A DNA stretch of 64,000 nt from Escherichia coli (lineage in GTDB: Bacteria > Pseudomonadota > Gammaproteobacteria > Enterobacterales > Enterobacteriaceae), in the NCBI RefSeq assembly GCF_009931435.1, contig NZ_CP043414.1. One strand, written 5' to 3'. Made by a program: the position numbers and the translations under genes. A model generated the notes under the pieces. The model did not search any database. It was not told where the DNA came from and saw nothing but the letters and a program-made list of their open reading frames with translations. Shown in pieces: positions 3,262 to 60,108 of the stretch; position 1 is the first letter of the stretch, and the number at the start of each line of letters is the position of its first letter.

Positions 3262-4203
<942 letters not shown>

Positions 4204-5291: not shown

Positions 5292-5954
5292 ATGGATTAT
5301 ACGCTCACCCGCATAGATCCCAACGGTGAGAACGACCGTTACCCCCTGCAAAAGCAGGAGATCGTAACCGACCCTCTGGAGCAAGAAGTTAACAAAAACG
5401 TGTTTATGGGCAAGCTCAATGACATGGTTAACTGGGGTCGTAAAAACTCAATTTGGCCGTATAACTTCGGTCTTTCCTGCTGTTACGTTGAGATGGTGAC
5501 TTCGTTTACCGCGGTGCATGACGTGGCACGTTTTGGCGCAGAAGTATTGCGTGCTTCGCCGCGTCAGGCTGACCTGATGGTGGTTGCAGGAACCTGCTTT
5601 ACCAAAATGGCACCGGTTATTCAGCGTCTGTATGACCAGATGCTGGAACCAAAATGGGTTATCTCAATGGGGGCCTGTGCCAACTCTGGCGGTATGTACG
5701 ATATTTATTCCGTTGTGCAGGGCGTTGATAAATTCATCCCGGTTGATGTGTATATCCCGGGCTGCCCGCCACGTCCTGAAGCGTACATGCAGGCACTGAT
5801 GCTGTTGCAGGAATCTATCGGTAAAGAACGTCGTCCGCTCTCCTGGGTGGTTGGCGATCAGGGCGTTTATCGCGCCAATATGCAATCAGAGCGCGAACGC
5901 AAGCGCGGTGAACGCATTGCCGTTACCAACCTGCGTACACCTGACGAGATTTAA
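5292..5954 (+). CDS. nuoB: NADH:quinone oxidoreductase subunit B (N2 Fe-S cluster subunit)
   Basis: 220 aa; conserved CCxxE ... GxCxxxGG ... GCPP cysteine motifs. Confidence 0.93.
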
Positions 5955-6047
5955 TTTGCGCCTGTCGGCAAAGGGATTTTTCTTCGCTTATTCCTAAATC
6001 TATTTCGCGAAGCTTACTGCGCCGACAGTCACCACGGACCATTTGCA

Positions 6048-7850
6048 ATGGTGAACAATATGACCGACTTAACCGCGCAAGAACCCGCCTGGCAGACCCG
6101 CGATCATCTTGATGATCCGGTGATTGGCGAACTGCGCAACCGTTTTGGGCCGGATGCCTTTACTGTTCAGGCGACTCGCACCGGGGTTCCCGTTGTGTGG
6201 ATCAAGCGTGAACAATTACTGGAAGTGGGTGATTTCTTAAAGAAACTGCCGAAACCTTACGTCATGCTGTTTGACTTACACGGCATGGACGAACGTCTGC
6301 GCACACACCGCGAAGGGTTACCTGCCGCGGATTTTTCCGTTTTCTACCATCTGATTTCTATCGATCGTAACCGCGACATCATGCTGAAGGTGGCGCTGGC
6401 AGAAAACGACCTGCACGTACCGACCTTCACCAAGCTGTTCCCGAACGCTAACTGGTATGAGCGTGAAACCTGGGATCTGTTTGGCATTACTTTCGATGGT
6501 CACCCCAATTTGCGCCGCATCATGATGCCGCAAACCTGGAAAGGTCACCCGCTGCGTAAAGATTACCCGGCGCGCGCTACCGAATTCTCGCCGTTTGAGC
6601 TGACCAAAGCCAAACAGGATCTGGAGATGGAAGCCCTGACCTTCAAACCGGAAGAGTGGGGGATGAAGCGTGGCACCGAAAATGAAGACTTCATGTTCCT
6701 CAACCTCGGTCCGAACCACCCGTCGGCGCACGGTGCTTTCCGTATCGTTTTGCAACTCGATGGCGAAGAGATTGTCGACTGCGTACCAGACATCGGTTAC
6801 CACCATCGTGGTGCGGAGAAAATGGGCGAGCGCCAGTCATGGCACAGCTACATTCCGTATACCGACCGTATCGAATATCTCGGTGGCTGTGTTAACGAGA
6901 TGCCGTATGTACTGGCGGTAGAGAAACTGGCCGGGATCACCGTGCCGGATCGCGTTAACGTCATTCGCGTAATGCTTTCTGAGCTGTTCCGCATCAACAG
7001 CCACCTGCTGTATATCTCGACCTTTATTCAGGACGTCGGCGCGATGACGCCAGTGTTCTTCGCCTTTACCGATCGTCAGAAAATTTACGATCTGGTGGAA
7101 GCAATCACTGGTTTCCGTATGCACCCGGCGTGGTTCCGTATTGGCGGCGTAGCGCACGACCTGCCGCGCGGCTGGGATCGCCTGCTGCGTGAGTTCCTCG
7201 ACTGGATGCCGAAACGTCTGGCGTCTTATGAGAAAGCGGCGCTGCAAAACACCATTTTGAAAGGCCGTTCCCAGGGCGTAGCCGCCTACGGCGCGAAAGA
7301 GGCGCTGGAGTGGGGCACCACTGGTGCTGGTTTGCGTGCTACCGGGATCGACTTCGATGTGCGTAAGGCGCGCCCTTATTCTGGCTATGAAAACTTCGAC
7401 TTTGAAATCCCGGTTGGTGGTGGTGTTTCTGACTGCTACACCCGCGTAATGCTGAAAGTGGAAGAACTGCGTCAGAGTCTGCGCATTCTTGAGCAGTGCC
7501 TCAACAACATGCCGGAAGGCCCGTTCAAAGCGGATCACCCGCTGACCACGCCGCCGCCGAAAGAGCGCACGCTGCAACATATCGAAACCCTGATCACCCA
7601 CTTCCTGCAAGTGTCGTGGGGGCCGGTGATGCCTGCCAATGAATCTTTCCAGATGATTGAGGCGACCAAAGGGATCAACAGTTACTACCTGACCAGCGAC
7701 GGCAGCACTATGAGTTATCGCACCCGTATCCGTACGCCGAGTTATGCGCATTTGCAGCAAATTCCGGCGGCGATCCGCGGCAGCCTGGTGTCTGACCTGA
7801 TTGTTTATCTGGGCAGTATCGATTTTGTTATGTCAGATGTGGACCGCTAA
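6048..7850 (+). CDS. nuoC: NADH:quinone oxidoreductase fused subunit C/D
   Basis: 600 aa ORF, typical fused NuoCD of enterobacteria; stop overlaps the nuoE RBS region. Confidence 0.93.
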
Positions 7851-7852
7851 TT

Positions 7853-8353
7853 ATGCACGAGAATCAACAACCACAAACCGAGGCTTTTGAGCTGAGTGCG
7901 GCTGAGCGTGAAGCGATTGAGCACGAGATGCACCACTACGAAGACCCGCGTGCGGCGTCCATTGAAGCGCTGAAAATCGTTCAGAAACAGCGTGGATGGG
8001 TGCCAGACGGCGCGATCCACGCGATCGCTGACGTTCTGGGTATTCCCGCAAGTGATGTCGAAGGCGTGGCTACTTTCTACAGCCAGATCTTCCGCCAGCC
8101 GGTTGGTCGCCATGTGATCCGTTATTGCGACAGCGTGGTCTGTCACATTAACGGTTACCAGGGCATTCAGGCGGCACTGGAGAAAAAACTGAACATCAAA
8201 CCAGGGCAAACGACGTTTGACGGTCGCTTTACGCTGCTGCCAACTTGCTGCCTGGGGAACTGTGATAAAGGGCCAAACATGATGATCGATGAGGACACTC
8301 ACGCGCATCTGACCCCGGAAGCGATTCCTGAACTGCTGGAGCGGTATAAATGA
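7853..8353 (+). CDS. nuoE: NADH:quinone oxidoreductase subunit E (2Fe-2S)
   Basis: 166 aa, thioredoxin-like 2Fe-2S ferredoxin cysteines (CDSVVC ... [10 protein letters not shown]). Confidence 0.93.
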
Positions 8354-9687
8354 AAAACATTATCCGTACTCCCGAAACGCATCCGCTGACCTGGCGTCTG
8401 CGTGATGACAAACAGCCAGTGTGGCTGGACGAATATCGCAGCAAAAACGGTTACGAAGGAGCGCGTAAGGCGCTGACCGGACTGTCTCCGGACGAGATCG
8501 TCAATCAGGTTAAAGACGCTGGCCTGAAAGGGCGCGGCGGTGCGGGCTTTTCGACTGGTCTGAAGTGGAGCCTGATGCCGAAAGACGAATCCATGAACAT
8601 CCGTTACCTGCTGTGTAACGCCGATGAAATGGAGCCGGGCACCTATAAAGACCGCCTGCTGATGGAGCAACTGCCGCACCTGCTGGTGGAAGGTATGCTC
8701 ATTTCCGCATTTGCGCTGAAAGCTTATCGTGGCTACATCTTCCTGCGTGGCGAATATATTGAAGCGGCAGTGAATCTGCGCCGCGCCATTGCCGAAGCGA
8801 CCGAAGCGGGTCTGCTTGGCAAAAACATTATGGGAACAGGGTTCGATTTCGAACTGTTCGTCCATACCGGGGCAGGGCGCTACATCTGCGGGGAAGAAAC
8901 AGCGTTAATCAACTCCCTGGAAGGGCGTCGTGCTAACCCACGCTCGAAACCCCCCTTCCCGGCAACCTCCGGCGTATGGGGCAAACCGACCTGTGTCAAC
9001 AACGTCGAAACCCTGTGTAACGTTCCGGCGATCCTCGCTAACGGCGTGGAGTGGTATCAGAACATCTCGAAAAGTAAAGATGCTGGCACCAAGCTGATGG
9101 GCTTCTCCGGTCGGGTGAAAAATCCGGGCCTGTGGGAACTGCCGTTCGGCACTACCGCACGCGAGATCCTCGAAGATTACGCCGGTGGTATGCGTGACGG
9201 CCTGAAATTCAAAGCCTGGCAGCCAGGCGGTGCGGGCACTGACTTCCTGACCGAAGCGCACCTTGACCTGCCGATGGAATTCGAAAGTATCGGTAAAGCG
9301 GGCAGCCGTCTGGGTACGGCGCTGGCGATGGCGGTTGATCACGAGATCAACATGGTGTCGCTGGTACGAAACCTGGAAGAATTTTTCGCCCGTGAGTCCT
9401 GCGGCTGGTGTACGCCGTGCCGCGACGGTTTGCCGTGGAGCGTGAAAATTCTGCGCGCGCTGGAGCGTGGCGAAGGTCAGCCGGGCGATATCGAAACACT
9501 TGAGCAACTGTGTCGATTCTTGGGGCCGGGTAAAACTTTCTGTGCCCACGCACCTGGTGCAGTGGAGCCGTTACAGAGCGCCATCAAATATTTCCGCGAA
9601 GAATTTGAGGCGGGAATCAAACAGCCGTTCAGCAATACCCATTTGATTAATGGGATTCAGCCGAACCTGCTGAAAGAGCGCTGGTAA
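8350..9687 (+). CDS. nuoF: NADH:quinone oxidoreductase subunit F (NADH/FMN-binding, 4Fe-4S)
   Basis: 445 aa; GRGGAGF glycine-rich FMN/NADH motif; 4-nt overlap with nuoE. Confidence 0.93.
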
Positions 9688-9739
9688 CCGAATTTCGATT
9701 AACGCTCAGTCTCTGACTGAGAAAACTGGAAGCATGCTA

Positions 9740-12466
9740 ATGGCTACAATTCATGTAGACGGCAAAGAATACGAGGTCAACGGAGCGGACAACCTGCTGG
9801 AAGCTTGTCTGTCTCTGGGCCTTGATATTCCTTACTTTTGCTGGCATCCGGCGCTGGGAAGCGTCGGTGCTTGCCGCCAGTGTGCGGTGAAGCAATACCA
9901 AAACGCGGAAGACACGCGTGGTCGCCTGGTGATGTCCTGTATGACACCGGCTTCCGATGGCACCTTTATTTCCATTGACGACGAAGAAGCGAAACAGTTC
10001 CGTGAAAGCGTGGTCGAGTGGTTGATGACCAACCACCCGCACGATTGTCCGGTATGTGAAGAGGGCGGTAACTGCCATCTTCAGGATATGACCGTGATGA
10101 CCGGACACAGCTTCCGTCGCTACCGTTTCACCAAACGTACCCACCGCAATCAGGATCTGGGGCCGTTCATCTCTCACGAAATGAACCGTTGCATCGCCTG
10201 CTACCGCTGCGTGCGTTACTACAAAGATTACGCTGACGGTACAGATCTGGGCGTTTACGGTGCACATGACAACGTCTACTTCGGTCGCCCGGAAGACGGC
10301 ACCCTGGAAAGCGAATTCTCCGGTAACCTGGTCGAAATTTGCCCGACCGGCGTATTCACCGACAAAACGCACTCCGAGCGTTATAACCGTAAATGGGATA
10401 TGCAGTTTGCGCCGAGCATCTGCCAGCAATGTTCCATCGGCTGTAACATCAGCCCCGGCGAGCGTTATGGCGAACTGCGTCGTATCGAAAACCGTTACAA
10501 CGGTACGGTAAACCACTACTTCCTCTGCGACCGAGGTCGTTTCGGTTACGGCTACGTCAACCTGAAAGATCGTCCGCGTCAGCCAGTACAGCGTCGTGGC
10601 GATGATTTCATTACCCTCAACGCCGAGCAGGCAATGCAGGGCGCGGCAGATATTCTGCGTCAGTCGAAGAAAGTCATCGGCATCGGTTCTCCGCGTGCCA
10701 GCGTGGAAAGCAACTTTGCGCTGCGTGAGCTGGTGGGCGAAGAAAACTTCTATACCGGTATCGCTCACGGTGAGCAGGAACGTCTGCAACTGGCACTAAA
10801 AGTGCTGCGTGAAGGCGGCATTTATACTCCGGCTCTGCGCGAAATCGAATCTTATGATGCGGTACTGGTGCTGGGCGAAGACGTTACCCAGACCGGCGCG
10901 CGCGTTGCGCTGGCAGTGCGTCAGGCGGTGAAAGGTAAAGCACGCGAAATGGCGGCAGCACAGAAAGTGGCTGACTGGCAGATTGCGGCAATCCTCAACA
11001 TTGGCCAACGTGCGAAGCATCCGCTGTTTGTGACTAACGTTGATGACACCCGTCTGGATGATATCGCGGCGTGGACTTACCGCGCACCGGTTGAAGATCA
11101 GGCGCGTTTAGGTTTTGCCATTGCCCATGCTCTGGATAACTCCGCGCCAGCGGTTGACGGTATCGAGCCTGAACTGCAAAGCAAAATCGACGTCATCGTG
11201 CAGGCACTGGCAGGTGCGAAGAAACCGTTAATTATCTCCGGGACGAACGCTGGTAGCGCTGAAGTGATTCAGGCAGCGGCTAACGTGGCGAAAGCCCTGA
11301 AAGGTCGCGGCGCTGACGTCGGTATCACCATGATTGCCCGTTCCGTCAACAGCATGGGGCTGGGCATTATGGGCGGTGGATCGCTTGAAGAAGCGTTAAC
11401 CGAACTGGAAACCGGACGCGCCGACGCGGTGGTGGTGCTGGAAAACGATCTGCATCGTCACGCTTCCGCTACCCGCGTGAATGCTGCGCTGGCGAAAGCG
11501 CCGCTGGTGATGGTGGTTGACCATCAACGCACGGCGATCATGGAAAACGCCCATCTGGTGCTTTCTGCCGCCAGCTTTGCTGAAAGCGACGGTACGGTGA
11601 TCAACAATGAAGGCCGTGCCCAACGTTTCTTCCAGGTTTACGATCCGGCTTATTACGACAGCAAAACTGTGATGCTGGAAAGCTGGCGCTGGCTGCACTC
11701 GCTGCACAGCACCCTACTGAGCCGTGAAGTGGACTGGACGCAGCTCGACCATGTGATTGACGCTGTTGTGGCGAAAATCCCGGAACTGGCAGGTATCAAA
11801 GATGCTGCGCCGGATGCGACATTCCGTATTCGTGGTCAGAAACTGGCCCGTGAGCCGCACCGTTACAGTGGTCGTACCGCCATGCGCGCCAACATCAGCG
11901 TTCATGAGCCGCGTCAGCCGCAGGATATTGACACCATGTTCACCTTCTCGATGGAGGGTAACAACCAGCCGACCGCGCACCGTTCGCAAGTGCCGTTTGC
12001 CTGGGCGCCGGGCTGGAACTCCCCGCAGGCGTGGAACAAATTCCAGGACGAAGTGGGCGGCAAACTGCGCTTTGGCGATCCGGGCGTGCGTCTGTTTGAA
12101 ACCAGCGAAAACGGTCTGGATTACTTCACCAGCGTACCGGCACGCTTCCAGCCGCAGGAAGGGAAATGGCGTATCGCGCCGTACTACCACCTGTTTGGCA
12201 GCGATGAATTGTCACAGCGTGCCCCGGTCTTCCATAGCCGTATGCCGCAACCGTACATCAAACTCAACCCAGCGGATGCCGCGAAGTTGGGAGTGAACGC
12301 GGGTACACGCGTCTCCTTTAGTTACGATGGCAACACGGTCACGCTGCCGGTTGAAATCGCCGAAGGACTGACGGCAGGGCAGGTGGGCTTGCCGATGGGC
12401 ATGTCCGGTATTGCTCCGGTGCTGGCTGGCGCGCATCTTGAGGATCTCAAGGAGGCACAACAATGA
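9740..12466 (+). CDS. nuoG: NADH:quinone oxidoreductase subunit G (molybdopterin-like Fe-S subunit)
   Basis: about 908 aa; N-terminal 2Fe-2S and 4Fe-4S cysteine clusters; an ATG two codons upstream (9734) is an alternative start. Confidence 0.9.
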
Positions 12467-54798: not shown

Positions 54799-56157
54799 AT
54801 GTTGAGTATTTTTAAACCGGCGCCACACAAAGCGCGCTTACCTGCCGCGGAGATCGATCCGACTTATCGTCGATTGCGCTGGCAAATTTTCCTGGGGATA
54901 TTCTTTGGCTATGCTGCTTACTATTTGGTTCGTAAGAACTTTGCGCTCGCTATGCCTTACCTGGTGGAGCAGGGATTCTCACGCGGTGATTTAGGTTTCG
55001 CGCTTTCTGGGATCTCGATCGCCTATGGATTTTCGAAATTCATCATGGGTTCGGTGTCGGATCGCTCGAATCCGCGCGTTTTCCTCCCCGCAGGTTTGAT
55101 TCTGGCGGCGGCAGTGATGCTGTTTATGGGCTTTGTGCCATGGGCGACATCGAGCATTGCGGTAATGTTTGTACTGTTGTTCCTCTGCGGCTGGTTCCAG
55201 GGGATGGGGTGGCCGCCGTGTGGTCGTACTATGGTGCACTGGTGGTCGCAGAAAGAACGTGGCGGCATTGTGTCGGTGTGGAACTGTGCGCACAACGTCG
55301 GTGGTGGTATTCCGCCGCTGCTGTTCCTGCTGGGGATGGCCTGGTTCAATGACTGGCACGCGGCCCTCTATATGCCCGCTTTCTGCGCCATTCTGGTGGC
55401 ACTATTCGCCTTTGCGATGATGCGCGATACCCCACAATCCTGTGGCTTGCCGCCGATCGAAGAGTACAAAAACGATTATCCGGACGACTATAACGAAAAA
55501 GCGGAACAGGAGCTGACCGCAAAGCAAATTTTCATGCAGTACGTGCTGCCGAACAAACTGCTGTGGTACATCGCCATCGCCAACGTGTTCGTTTATCTGC
55601 TGCGTTACGGCATCCTCGACTGGTCACCGACCTACCTGAAAGAAGTTAAGCATTTCGCGCTGGATAAATCCTCCTGGGCCTACTTCCTTTATGAATATGC
55701 GGGCATTCCGGGCACCCTGTTATGCGGCTGGATGTCGGATAAAGTCTTCCGCGGTAACCGTGGGGCAACCGGCGTCTTCTTTATGACACTGGTGACCATC
55801 GCAACTATCGTTTACTGGATGAACCCGGCGGGCAATCCCAACGTCGATATGATTTGTATGATTGTCATCGGCTTCTTGATCTACGGTCCTGTGATGTTGA
55901 TCGGTCTGCATGCGCTGGAACTGGCACCGAAAAAAGCGGCAGGTACGGCAGCGGGCTTTACCGGTCTGTTTGGTTACCTGGGCGGTTCGGTGGCGGCGAG
56001 CGCGATTGTTGGTTACACCGTGGACTTCTTCGGCTGGGATGGCGGTTTTATGGTAATGATTGGCGGCAGCATCCTGGCGGTTATCCTGTTGATAGTTGTG
56101 ATGATTGGCGAAAAACGTCGCCATCAGGAATTACTGCAAAAACGCAATGGAGGCTAA
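54799..56157 (+). CDS. glpT: Glycerol-3-phosphate:phosphate antiporter GlpT (MFS)
   Basis: 452 aa; GGAGG RBS; 12-TM organophosphate:Pi antiporter. Confidence 0.92.
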
Positions 56158-56161
56158 TGGC

Positions 56162-57238
56162 ATGAAATTGACGCTGAAAAACCTTAGCATGGCGATCATG
56201 ATGAGTGGAATGATCATGGGAAGCAGTGCAATGGCGGCGGATAGCAACGAAAAAATAGTCATCGCCCATCGCGGTGCCAGTGGATATTTACCGGAGCATA
56301 CGCTGCCAGCAAAAGCGATGGCGTATGCGCAGGGGGCAGATTATCTGGAACAGGATTTGGTGATGACCAAAGACGACCATCTGGTTGTTCTGCATGACCA
56401 TTATCTCGATCGTGTTACTGATGTCGCCGATCGTTTCCCGGACAGGGCGCGTAAAGATGGCCGTTACTACGCGATAGATTTTACGCTGGATGAAATTAAG
56501 TCGCTGAAATTTACCGAAGGTTTCGATATTGAAAACGGTAAAAAAGTGCAGACTTATCCGGGGCGTTTCCCGATGGGTAAGTCTGACTTCCGGGTGCACA
56601 CCTTTGAAGAAGAGATTGAATTTGTTCAGGGGTTAAATCACTCTACCGGGAAAAATATCGGTATCTATCCAGAAATTAAAGCGCCGTGGTTCCATCATCA
56701 GGAAGGGAAGGATATTGCGGCAAAAACGCTGGAAGTGCTGAAGAAATATGGTTACACCGGCAAGGACGACAAAGTTTATTTGCAATGTTTTGATGTTGAT
56801 GAACTGAAGCGCATTAAAAATGAGCTGGAACCCAAAATGGGCATGGACCTCAATCTGGTACAGTTGATTGCCTATACCGACTGGAATGAAACGCAGCAGA
56901 AACAGCCGGACGGAAGCTGGGTTAATTACAGCTATGACTGGATGTTCAAGCCGGGCGCTATGAAACAGGTAGCGGAATATGCTGATGGCATTGGTCCGGA
57001 TTACCATATGGTGATTGAGGAGACATCGCAGCCGGGTAATATCAAGCTTACCGGAATGGTAAAAGATGCACAGCAGAATAAGCTGGTGGTGCATCCTTAT
57101 ACCGTGCGGGTCGACAAGCTGCCGGAATATGCCACCGATGTGAATCAGTTGTATGATGCTCTGTATAACAAAGCGGGTGTAAATGGGCTGTTTACTGATT
57201 TCCCTGATAAGGCAGTAAAATTCCTTAATAAAGAGTAA
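56162..57238 (+). CDS. glpQ: Periplasmic glycerophosphodiester phosphodiesterase GlpQ
   Basis: 358 aa from MKLTLKNLSMAIMMSGMIMGSSAMA (signal peptide); HRGASGYLPEHT catalytic motif. Confidence 0.92.
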   Translation: MKLTLKNLSMAIMMSGMIMGSSAMAADSNEKIVIAHRGASGYLPEHTLPAKAMAYAQGADYLEQDLVMTKDDHLVVLHDHYLDRVTDVADRFPDRARKDGRYYAIDFTLDEIKSLKFTEGFDIENGKKVQTYPGRFPMGKSDFRVHTFEEEIEFVQGLNHSTGKNIGIYPEIKAPWFHHQEGKDIAAKTLEVLKKYGYTGKDDKVYLQCFDVDELKRIKNELEPKMGMDLNLVQLIAYTDWNETQQKQPDGSWVNYSYDWMFKPGAMKQVAEYADGIGPDYHMVIEETSQPGNIKLTGMVKDAQQNKLVVHPYTVRVDKLPEYATDVNQLYDALYNKAGVNGLFTDFPDKAVKFLNKE

Positions 57239-57245
57239 TGCTACT

Positions 57246-57274
57246 GCAGGATGGCGTTTATGCGCCATCCTCTG
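57246..57274 (+). terminator. Hairpin just downstream of glpQ
   Basis: ggatggcg / cgccatcc stem with a 6-nt loop, 8 nt after the glpQ stop; no strong T-run. Confidence 0.45.
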
Positions 57275-57457
57275 CTAAAGCGAAATAATGCTACTACCGG
57301 TTATTCTTTTCATTAACGGGTGCATCCTGTAAAAAGATGCCAACATAATTTTCGTAAAACTCATTCGTTAAAAAAGCTAACACTGTGCATTGTTATTCTT
57401 TAAACAGTATGAATAGGTCTCAATAATAAATTGTAATGCAGTTTATACTGTAAAGTA

Positions 57458-58528
57458 TTATTCGAATTTCGGAAAGGTAAAGAAAATATTAATGTATCTT
57501 ATTAATTTATCATATTGTTCTTGGGTGAATGCTGTTTGCACACCTTCAGGGCAATATTTACCAGTAATAACCAGTTGCCCATTGCTGTGTTGTACCATTA
57601 AACCTTCTTTTTCCTTTGGATCTACAAAATTAGAATTATCAAATGTGAAGATATTTTTTTCCTGTTTTGAGTAAGTAAAGAAATCTCGTGTATAGCTGAA
57701 ACTATCATTTATTAATGGTGCTAACTTTTTGTCGGCGATATCGATAAGCTCACCACTTAATTTATTGATGTATTTAATTTGCTTCAATTTTTTCTGCGCT
57801 TGCACAATTTGCTTGTAGGTGTTTTCAATTTTTTTAGAAGAATTCTTAAATACATCATAGCGTTCCTCGGAGGATGTGTATTTGTACCATTCTGTATTTT
57901 TCTCAGAATGTTGTAGCAGGTCTGTATATTTTTTTTGATCGCTGTAAAGTTGACTTTTAATACTTTCCTCACTGCTGATCTTATAATGTTTATCAGAGTT
58001 GTTTGTTTTTGAAATGTCCTTTTCTGTCAGTGTCTGGTCCGTGTTGTGGGTATTTTCTTTTGCAACATGCTCATTGATGATGTTAATTGCAGTTTCATAT
58101 TCATTTAAATTTATTGTTCTTTGTGAAAGAAACCCTTCTTTGCTTTCGATACTCAAAACACCTTCGTTGTTTTCACCTCTGGTAAAGGTAAGGATATAGG
58201 GTTCATAATCTTCTGCAAATTCATTTTTATACGTTATGACATGCTCGACAAAATGTCTTATTGGTACGAAACCATAACTGTGAACGTCAATTTTTTTGGT
58301 CTTGACACTATCAATTTCATCTGAGGCTTTCGTGAAAAAAGCCAATAAATTAGCTATGTTGTCTGCTGAGGTTGATAACCCGAATCTACTTTGAGATATT
58401 TTTAGAAACTCATTGCAAAAAATCTCAAGTTTCGCGGTTTGTTGTGATTCTTTGTAAATTTCTGCTGTTTGCAATTTATTATTTTGTAAAATATTACAGC
58501 GAGATAAGTGAATAGATGTATTTGGCAT
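57458..58528 (-). CDS. Orphan hypothetical protein of about 356 aa, no family recognised; AT-rich, foreign-looking
   Basis: Long uninterrupted ORF in a very AT-rich block; ATG at 58528 preceded by AAGGA at good spacing (the track start at 58564 is a TTG); Lys/Glu/Ser/Asn-rich, no TM segment, no motif I can place. Confidence 0.6.
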   Translation of the reverse strand: MPNTSIHLSRCNILQNNKLQTAEIYKESQQTAKLEIFCNEFLKISQSRFGLSTSADNIANLLAFFTKASDEIDSVKTKKIDVHSYGFVPIRHFVEHVITYKNEFAEDYEPYILTFTRGENNEGVLSIESKEGFLSQRTINLNEYETAINIINEHVAKENTHNTDQTLTEKDISKTNNSDKHYKISSEESIKSQLYSDQKKYTDLLQHSEKNTEWYKYTSSEERYDVFKNSSKKIENTYKQIVQAQKKLKQIKYINKLSGELIDIADKKLAPLINDSFSYTRDFFTYSKQEKNIFTFDNSNFVDPKEKEGLMVQHSNGQLVITGKYCPEGVQTAFTQEQYDKLIRYINIFFTFPKFE

Positions 58529-58993
58529 AAATGATTCCTTGTAGTGTGAGTTAACAAGATACAATTTAATCTTTGCAGAATATATTCACTATCAAATTTA
58601 GCTCATTTTATTACGAAGACCTTTACGCATGTTAGAAAGTATCATTATTGTTAATAAATACGGTAATAAGTAACAAACAGATATTGATAACTTCCCTGAC
58701 AAGTTATTAGGTATCCCACTTGAAGATTGAGAATGGCTCCAGAGTAGACTGTGTACTGTTCGCCGGAGTGTCATTACTCTCAACAATCGGTTTTGACAGT
58801 GAGTCGGGCGCTTCATACCGGTTTCTACCTGGAGTCATTGTCACTTCCCTAATCTGGATAAATATTTATCGCTAATTCACAAAGTGGACCAAAATCAGGT
58901 GAAAACGAATTATTACGCATGGTAAAGACTACAGGCCAACTAAGTGTGGCGAATCAGACAATCTTACATTTGTCATCAATCTCATGTCTCACA

Positions 58994-59212
58994 TCAAATT
59001 TTTCCACTCACCACGAGTTGTTCCGTACACGTTTGTAGTAAAAACAGTGGACTGCCTTCTACCGGCTTTTCTTTAGCCAACAACGAAATCTGTCGATAGA
59101 AGGTTGGTTCGTGAGGAACGGAACACAATTCACCTGCAATGGTTTTCAGCGTTAACTCTGGTAATAAGGCGATGCCTAATCCCTGTCGAATAAAATTCAT
59201 CGCTGTATCCAT
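58994..59212 (-). pseudogene. yfaH: C-terminal fragment of a LysR-type regulator (yfaH-like remnant)
   Basis: 72 aa ORF resembling only the C-terminal effector-domain end of LysR proteins (GLGIALLPELTLK...); no HTH-encoding region upstream. Confidence 0.5.
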
Positions 59213-59415
59213 CTGATTAAATTCACATTTTATTTGCTGGGCGCACTATTAGTGGTAGTGGCTGGTGGAGTCTATGCGCTGCAAATGAAGGGTAAAAGCG
59301 GTGTCGCGCTAGTAGTGGCAAAAGAAATTCATTAATACGACACGTTTCATTAAGATTTTTCGCAGGTAACCACCTATAGTCATTGTCGTTAATAAAAAAT
59401 GACAGGCGATAGGGT

Positions 59416-60066
59416 ATGGCAGTTTCAGCAAAGCACGATGAATTTAATCACTGGTGGGCAACAGAGGGCGACTGGGTTGAAGAGCCTAACTATCGCCGTA
59501 ATGGTATGAGCGGGGTGCAATGCGTCGAGCGCAACGGCAAAAAGCTGTATGTGAAGCGCATGACGCATCATCTGTTTCATTCCGTACGTTATCCGTTCGG
59601 TCGACCGACGATTGTCCGTGAGGTTGCGGTAATTAAAGAGCTGGAACGGGCTGGTGTCATTGTGCCGAAAATCGTTTTTGGTGAAGCGGTGAAAATTGAG
59701 GGTGAATGGCGCGCGTTGCTGGTGACGGAAGATATGGCGGGGTTCATAAGTATTGCTGACTGGTATGCCCAGCATGCAGTAACACCTTATTCTGACGATG
59801 TTCGGCAAGCCATGTTGAAAGCTGTGGCGATGGCGTTTAAGAAAATGCATAGCGTTAATCGTCAGCATGGCTGTTGTTACGTTCGCCACATCTATGTGAA
59901 AACAGAAGGTATGGTAGAAGCTGGTTTTCTTGATCTGGAGAAAAGTCGTCGCCGCTTACGTCGGCATAAAGCGATTAATCATGATTTCCGCCAGCTGGAA
60001 AAATATCTGGAGCCGATCCCTAAAGCGGACTGGGAGCAGGTTAAAGCGTATTACTACGCCATGTAA
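59416..60066 (+). CDS. inaA: Acid-inducible Kdo/WaaP-family kinase-like protein InaA
   Basis: 216 aa ORF with ATG start; recognised as InaA. Confidence 0.88.
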   Translation: MAVSAKHDEFNHWWATEGDWVEEPNYRRNGMSGVQCVERNGKKLYVKRMTHHLFHSVRYPFGRPTIVREVAVIKELERAGVIVPKIVFGEAVKIEGEWRALLVTEDMAGFISIADWYAQHAVTPYSDDVRQAMLKAVAMAFKKMHSVNRQHGCCYVRHIYVKTEGMVEAGFLDLEKSRRRLRRHKAINHDFRQLEKYLEPIPKADWEQVKAYYYAM

Positions 60067-60070
60067 TCAC

Positions 60071-60108
60071 GTAGGCCAGATAAGACGCGTAAGCGTCGCA
60101 TCTGGCAC
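60071..60108. repeat. REP element between convergent inaA and yfaE
   Basis: gtaggccagataagacgcgtaagcgtcgcatctggcac, a REP-consensus-like imperfect palindrome. Confidence 0.6.

Follow-up and report, generated by a model that had tools for sequence, protein, structure and literature searches.

What is the truncated LysR-type regulator gene that lies between glpQ and inaA in Escherichia coli, and was it ever the partner of the orphan gene beside it? The locus was analysed in a 64,000-nucleotide stretch of E. coli chromosome, referred to here as the window, and positions are those of the window unless another locus is named. From left to right, the window carries glpT (54799-56157, plus strand), glpQ (ending at 57238, plus strand), an AT-rich orphan ORF of 368 aa (57458-58564, minus strand), the LysR fragment, and inaA (59416-60066, plus strand), whose product matches the Pfam Kdo/WaaP kinase family; beyond inaA are yfaE, nrdB and nrdA, in that order, on the minus strand. 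The original prediction described the fragment as a decayed regulator encoding only the C-terminal part of a LysR effector domain, and proposed either an ancestral regulator-cargo pair with the orphan gene or an ancient deletion hotspot. Our analysis makes it very probable that what remains here is yfaH, a known E. coli pseudogene that consists of the non-functional 3' part of a LysR gene, was left by a 1,879-bp deletion and is unrelated to the orphan gene.

Identity of the remnant

The remnant was found to occupy 58994-59236 on the minus strand, where it encodes the last 80 codons and the stop codon (residues 213-292) of a 292-aa LysR-type regulator. When the intact regulator of the O55:H7 strain DEC5D (locus L002, 7797-8675) was used as a tblastn query, residues 213-292 aligned to 59236..58997 of the window with 90% identity (E=3e-41) and residues 1-212 had no counterpart in the 64-kb window. 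An ATG-to-stop ORF of 72 aa is present at 58994-59212(-), and the homologous remnant of 243 nt exceeds this ORF by 24 nt. The 72-aa ORF by itself gave a weak match to the Pfam LysR_substrate family (E=7e-4; 19.4 bits, where the gathering score is 28) at profile positions 140-188 of 209. Extending the ORF to the end of the homology (58994-59242) gave 28.9 bits at profile positions 131-188 of 209. The NCBIfam model for YfaH (NF007272/PRK09729), which has 68 positions and a curated cut-off of 139 bits, assigned 158.1 bits to the window ORF, with residues 5-72 aligned to profile positions 1-68.

The effector domain (PF03466, 209 profile positions) is incomplete in the remnant, with about 58 positions covered, and the Pfam profile search gave no match to HTH_1 (PF00126) on the fragment. 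No HTH sequence is encoded upstream, since from 59237 onward the minus strand runs into the 3' end of another gene, which is carried on the opposite strand. Both the partial effector domain and the lack of an upstream HTH-coding sequence were therefore as originally described. We also considered whether the missing N-terminus had moved elsewhere in the window. The only tblastn match was a LysR-type gene at 3295-3714 (+), distant from yfaH, whose N-terminal 143 residues are 24% identical to the intact regulator; this is an unrelated paralogue and the candidate was rejected.

At the syntenic position in K-12 MG1655, inaA (b2237) and glpQ (b2239) flank yfaH (b2238), which is annotated as a pseudogene, and the gene order around the window remnant agrees with this arrangement. 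RefSeq labels the same stretch in R32_14_1F and other strains as 'LysR family transcriptional regulator, incomplete, missing N-terminus'. The remnant is an already known and ordinary annotated pseudogene, and the earlier description of a decayed regulator is supported. The window and K-12 share the locus, the deletion junction and the 243-nt remnant, which is also present at this length in MG1655. The K-12-type allele of strain 127, whose 80-codon translation is identical to that of MG1655, differs from the window at 16 of the 243 nt. The alleles also differ at the junction octamer (TTTATTTG in the window and TTTATCTG in K-12-type alleles) and in the presence of an upstream in-frame ATG in the window allele, which gives 72 codons as compared with 68 in K-12. 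Furthermore, a 1.71-kb island carrying the orphan ORF flanks the remnant in the window whereas K-12 is without the island.

A deletion between two direct repeats

Alignment to the DEC5D locus placed window positions 57001-59241 on 5802-8043 (94.7% identity) and 59229-60098 on 9911-10781 (95.9% identity). Two copies of the octamer TTTATCTG are present in this locus, one at 8032 and the other at 9911, with a spacing of exactly 1,879 bp. The window retains a single copy of the repeat at 59229-59236, and its sequence follows the left flank up to the octamer and the right flank from the octamer onward. The presence of two octamers 1,879 bp apart in DEC5D and of one in the window thus defines a deletion of exactly 1,879 bp between 8-bp direct repeats. 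The form TTTATCTG was observed in both copies of the intact alleles as well as in the K-12-type alleles. The reconstruction of the deletion by alignment, which had been proposed as a check, could in this way be carried out to the base pair. A rescue of the LysR ORF by a single frameshift correction was ruled out, as the window nowhere contains the deleted 1,879 bp, and the similarity of the fragment to LysR proteins is real.

The opposite-strand gene at the junction was identified as a transporter of the MFS family. A tblastn search with the intact 396-aa protein located its last 34 codons (residues 363-396) and stop codon at 59231-59335 on the plus strand, with 100% identity at the protein level. 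This second remnant corresponds to a small plus-strand ORF at 59234-59335 and is labelled in RefSeq as a partial 'hypothetical protein, missing N-terminus'.

Both remnants are best accounted for by a single 1,879-bp deletion between the TTTATCTG direct repeats, one of which lies in each gene. The repeat itself points to replication slippage or to microhomology-mediated illegitimate recombination as the likely mechanism. This deletion took away codons 1-212 of the LysR gene, which specify the HTH, the linker and the greater part of the effector domain, together with the shared intergenic region and both promoters, and MFS codons 1-362. It left two tail-end stubs lying back to back, without the original promoter, start codon or any complete domain, and these stubs have presumably been drifting neutrally since the deletion.

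The ancestral LysR-MFS pair

Intact LysR genes were found in other genomes at the position of the remnant, which in E. coli is between glpQ and inaA, as the earlier proposal had suggested checking. In DEC5D, the 292-aa LysR gene at 7797-8675(-) faces an MFS gene at 8827-10017(+), which directly precedes inaA. In E. coli strains C325 (L003) and 500111 (L008), both genes are annotated as intact CDSs, and 1 nt is missing from the last 243 nt of the 500111 LysR gene, whose annotation extends 7 codons further. Pfam searches of the intact proteins gave 65 bits for HTH_1 and 125 bits for LysR_substrate in the regulator, and 202 bits for MFS_1 in the 396-aa transporter. The intact orthologue is therefore like other LysR-type regulators in having both domains (PF00126 and PF03466) and in facing an MFS gene, whereas the window keeps residues 213-292 only, with no HTH, no linker and no complete effector domain.

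The two genes are divergent and are separated by about 150 bp. This head-to-head arrangement was seen in every intact relative, comprising three haplotypes of E. coli, three further Escherichia lineages, two Kluyvera and one Pseudocitrobacter. The order glpT-glpQ-LysR-MFS-inaA-yfaE-nrdB is that of E. whittamii and Escherichia sp. E1V33, where about 50 bp separate glpQ from the stop codon of the LysR gene. The order is LysR-MFS-inaA-yfaE-nrdB in Escherichia sp. MOD1-EC7003 and in a Pseudocitrobacter MAG, and LysR-MFS-yfaE-nrdB in the two Kluyvera. As the intact divergent pair is found in the outgroups, the intact state is therefore ancestral and the state of the window is derived. The ancestral glpQ-inaA interval held a 292-aa regulator with HTH_1 and LysR_substrate domains, divergently arranged with a 396-aa MFS_1 transporter across about 150 bp. 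A divergent layout is the usual one where a LysR protein controls a neighbouring gene and its own gene, and the arrangement of the two genes suggests that the regulator controlled the MFS gene.

Curated models did not name the two intact proteins, each of which scored below the cut-off of every NCBIfam model that carries a named function. The regulator scored below the cut-off of every named LysR equivalog (the best being GltC, CidR, AlsR and CynR with 119-129 bits, where 277-430 are required), and the sole NCBIfam model it passed was that of the YfaH stub. The co-deleted transporter resembles other MFS_1 (PF07690) proteins, and its nearest NCBIfam models were PRK05122 and PRK12382, the latter described as an arabinose transporter. 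With 112 and 87 bits against cut-offs of 374 and 364, the transporter therefore falls outside these subfamilies.

Two further observations were made on the intact sequences. The 3' end of the C325 LysR gene (L003 5874-6113) has only about 75-78% DNA identity to other E. coli alleles (pS about 0.7), as compared with about 96% for the neighbouring MFS-inaA side. These values suggest that C325 carries a strongly diverged allele, possibly of imported origin, and that a recombination breakpoint lies within the gene. In addition, a 3.5-kb contig labelled as a Collinsella sp. MAG (L010, JAIJJM010000334.1) is 99% identical to the E. coli glpQ-orphan-LysR-MFS region and is probably a binning contaminant.

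Haplotypes across E. coli

The haplotypes were counted among 5,426 complete E. coli genomes, in all but one of which (5,425) some part of the interval was matched. At least 80% of the 2.2-kb LysR-MFS module was present in 1,216 genomes, about 3,150 had remnants only and about 1,060 had no match to the module, so that the module or its remnant occurs in about 4,366 genomes. The orphan ORF was present in 1,045-1,052 genomes. It was contiguous with the deletion junction, as in the window, in 334 of these and, by subtraction, accompanied an undeleted LysR gene in about 710. About 2,800 genomes carry the remnant and no orphan.

Several independent lesions have removed or damaged the module, and this part of the hotspot proposal holds. 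Besides the 1,879-bp deletion, ATCC 11775 (L006 1539-1742; B2-type), the sole genome examined from those with no match, has a different, larger and independent deletion, and IS1 insertions and an IS1-associated rearrangement are also found at the locus. ATCC 11775 keeps approximately the last 19 nt of the MFS gene, preceded by about 70 nt of filler that matches no intact allele or outgroup. In DEC5D, the LysR gene is intact and its MFS partner (L002 8827-10017) carries an internal stop codon, which represents a third, independent inactivation of the module.

The other part of the proposal, in which the TTTATCTG repeats would be a recurrent deletion hotspot that produced the fragment many times independently, was considered in the light of the junction itself. 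Microhomology-mediated deletions can recur, and the other lesions at the same locus are in keeping with recurrence. However, all the deleted alleles examined share at least four derived substitutions by the junction, at coding positions 11, 24, 39 and 41, and these changes were observed in no intact allele, including those of the outgroups. The same junction is present in the window, R32_14_1F, DH5alpha and strain 127, and among the matches listed all 27 remnant-only entries span 341-342 bp, which is the span predicted by this junction. Recurrent deletion at the repeats is therefore very unlikely. Judged from the derived sites shared by the junction, the window allele is one inherited deletion event, which appears to have been passed on by descent and spread by recombination.

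Constraint and expression of the stub

The 80 codons shared by the remnant and the intact genes were compared by pN/pS. Comparisons between intact alleles gave 0.08-0.15 in all but one case, the exception being a near-identical pair with only 5 differences. Deleted alleles compared with the closest intact allele gave 0.8-1.2, and comparisons among deleted alleles gave about 0.5-0.6, although the counts are small (3-16 substitutions) and mild constraint would be compatible with the value of about 0.5 among deleted alleles. Despite these small counts the direction is clear, and the remnant, with an overall pN/pS of about 0.9 where intact alleles have about 0.1, appears to evolve as if unconstrained. 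As an example, the motif QIKYEFNHP.TA.SF is found near the junction in every intact sequence from E. coli to Pseudocitrobacter, and in the deleted alleles it reads QIKCEFNQ(A/M)DTAMNF.

A functional role for the stub was weighed against these signals. In such a reading, the 68-72-aa YfaH ORF made by the deletion would be both transcribed, possibly with Cpx as the controlling system, and translated, giving a small protein that was kept after the deletion and that interferes with LysR oligomerisation or has taken on a new role. Several observations are in its favour. The 80-codon frame is open in the window, R32_14_1F, strain 127 and MG1655, in alleles up to about 6.6% apart, although a frame of this length would stay open without selection with an estimated chance of roughly 40-50%, which makes it weak evidence either way. 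A curated NCBIfam equivalog model for YfaH exists, and in the window allele two base changes have turned a CCG codon at 59212 into an in-frame ATG. A yfaH transcript is also measurable in K-12 by qRT-PCR (1.08-fold with pnlpE and 7.71-fold in delta-cpxR with pnlpE; PMC9600279). This table row indicates that the RNA is detectable, nothing more, and the stub may be transcribed, possibly by read-through.

Against this role, the pN/pS of about 0.8-1.2 relative to the closest intact allele is accompanied by a variable start, as the codon that supplies the window ATG is CCG, GCG, ATG or TAA in different alleles. No Shine-Dalgarno-like motif was found before the ATG at 59212, where the preceding bases are ...AATGTGAATTTAATCAG, and a crude consensus search of 58400-59450 found no minus-strand promoter-like site upstream of the stub. 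The same scan gave one weak plus-strand promoter-like site, located inside the island, and fewer such sites than in shuffled sequences. The region 57200-59450 had no match to Rfam families at E up to 1. Furthermore, the DH5alpha assembly has a stop codon and a frameshift in the remnant, though these could be assembly errors, and about 1,060 of the 5,426 genomes are entirely without the stub, which in any case spans only about 58 of the 209 effector-domain profile positions. A tetracycline-resistance cassette has also been put in place of the gene, where it served as a gyrA-linked selectable marker for the transduction of gyrA alleles (PMC2714960). In the literature, 'yfaH' was found to receive incidental mentions only, namely as this linked marker and in the one qRT-PCR table row. 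We therefore regard an active stub as highly improbable, even more so than recurrence of the deletion. If it were true, the five junction-side amino-acid changes common to the deleted alleles would represent adaptation and not drift. The interpretation that we favour is that yfaH is a pseudogene which has most likely lost its function.

The orphan gene and its AT-rich island

The remnant does lie directly upstream of the orphan ORF on the same strand, as had been noted, with 429 nt between them. The alignment of the K-12-type sequence (L004) with the window breaks off after 57271 and resumes at 58982, 12 nt short of the LysR stop codon. The orphan is therefore located inside an insertion of 1,710 bp (57272-58981). 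The GC content of this island is 33% as compared with 51% for the window. Its left boundary adjoins a hairpin just past the glpQ stop codon (57247-57271; GCAGGATGGCG-TTTAT-GCGCCATCCT, as read from the sequence), which probably serves as the glpQ terminator, and its right boundary is near the LysR stop codon. The hairpin is kept in L004, L005 and L008, and it lies between the convergent glpQ and LysR genes where the island is absent.

About 19% of the complete E. coli genomes have the island, in some cases with an IS1 disruption or a frameshift. Among the outgroups, two loci extend as far as glpQ, those of E. whittamii and Escherichia sp. E1V33, and both lack the island between glpQ and LysR. 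The orphan ORF had no match in Pfam, NCBIfam or PADLOC and a single, insignificant match in PHROG (E=0.046). A search of 5.8 billion proteins gave 22 relatives with 80-91% identity, and every one of these with a named source is from E. coli.

A search for terminal repeats or a target-site duplication at the island gave nothing convincing, and only a 15-nt imperfect duplicate of the glpQ stop region was observed. This direct duplicate is at the left edge of the island (57236-57250, TAATGCTACTGCAGG, and 57286-57300, TAATGCTACTACCGG), and its second copy is similar to what the B2-type strain ATCC 11775 has at the equivalent place. This similarity hints that the island was brought in through recombination with a donor whose sequence included a glpQ-like 3' end.

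The window remnant itself has a mixed pattern of derived sites. Those on the junction side are as in K-12-type alleles, and those on the stop side (coding positions 210, 212 and 220) are as in the island-bearing O157-type allele. Although this is an inference from a handful of sites, its most fitting explanation is homologous recombination at some point between coding positions 41 and 210 (window 59196-59027). The island was acquired separately, and homologous recombination in or near the remnant appears to have placed it beside the deletion in the lineage of the window.

These observations bear on the proposal that the LysR gene and the downstream orphan were an ancestral regulator-cargo pair of which the regulator decayed and the cargo was left. 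The shared strand, the short distance of 429 nt and the position of the intact LysR gene of O55:H7 DEC5D directly upstream of the orphan would agree with such a pair, but the orphan is absent from E. whittamii and Escherichia sp. E1V33, where glpQ is next to the LysR gene, and from E. coli C325 and 500111, where the LysR-MFS pair is intact; it sits in a discrete insertion of low GC content, it occurs in about 1,045 genomes as against about 4,366 for the LysR module, whole or as a remnant, both the presence and the absence of the orphan are found with intact LysR genes and with deleted ones, and the conserved partner of the regulator is the divergent MFS gene, all of which makes this the least credible of the explanations considered. 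An ancestral regulator-cargo pair with the orphan is therefore not supported, and the adjacency of regulator and orphan seems to be an accident of insertion and recombination.

Implications

Beyond its annotation, the yfaH remnant itself matters little. The present analysis adds the exact extent of the 1,879-bp deletion at the microhomology, the MFS partner that was lost with the regulator and its 34-codon stub, the ancestral state as given by the outgroups, the haplotype frequencies and the likely mosaic origin of the arrangement in the window. The results also correct the idea of the orphan gene as the cargo of a LysR regulator. The locus offers a clean example of gene loss in which a deletion, probably mediated by microhomology, removed a regulator and its probable target together, and the glpQ-inaA interval can be regarded as a mosaic spot that has been repeatedly eroded in E. 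coli. The breakpoints and haplotype frequencies may be used as a lineage marker, and the haplotypes point to O157/O55-type and C325-type strains as those in which the intact LysR-MFS pair could be studied.
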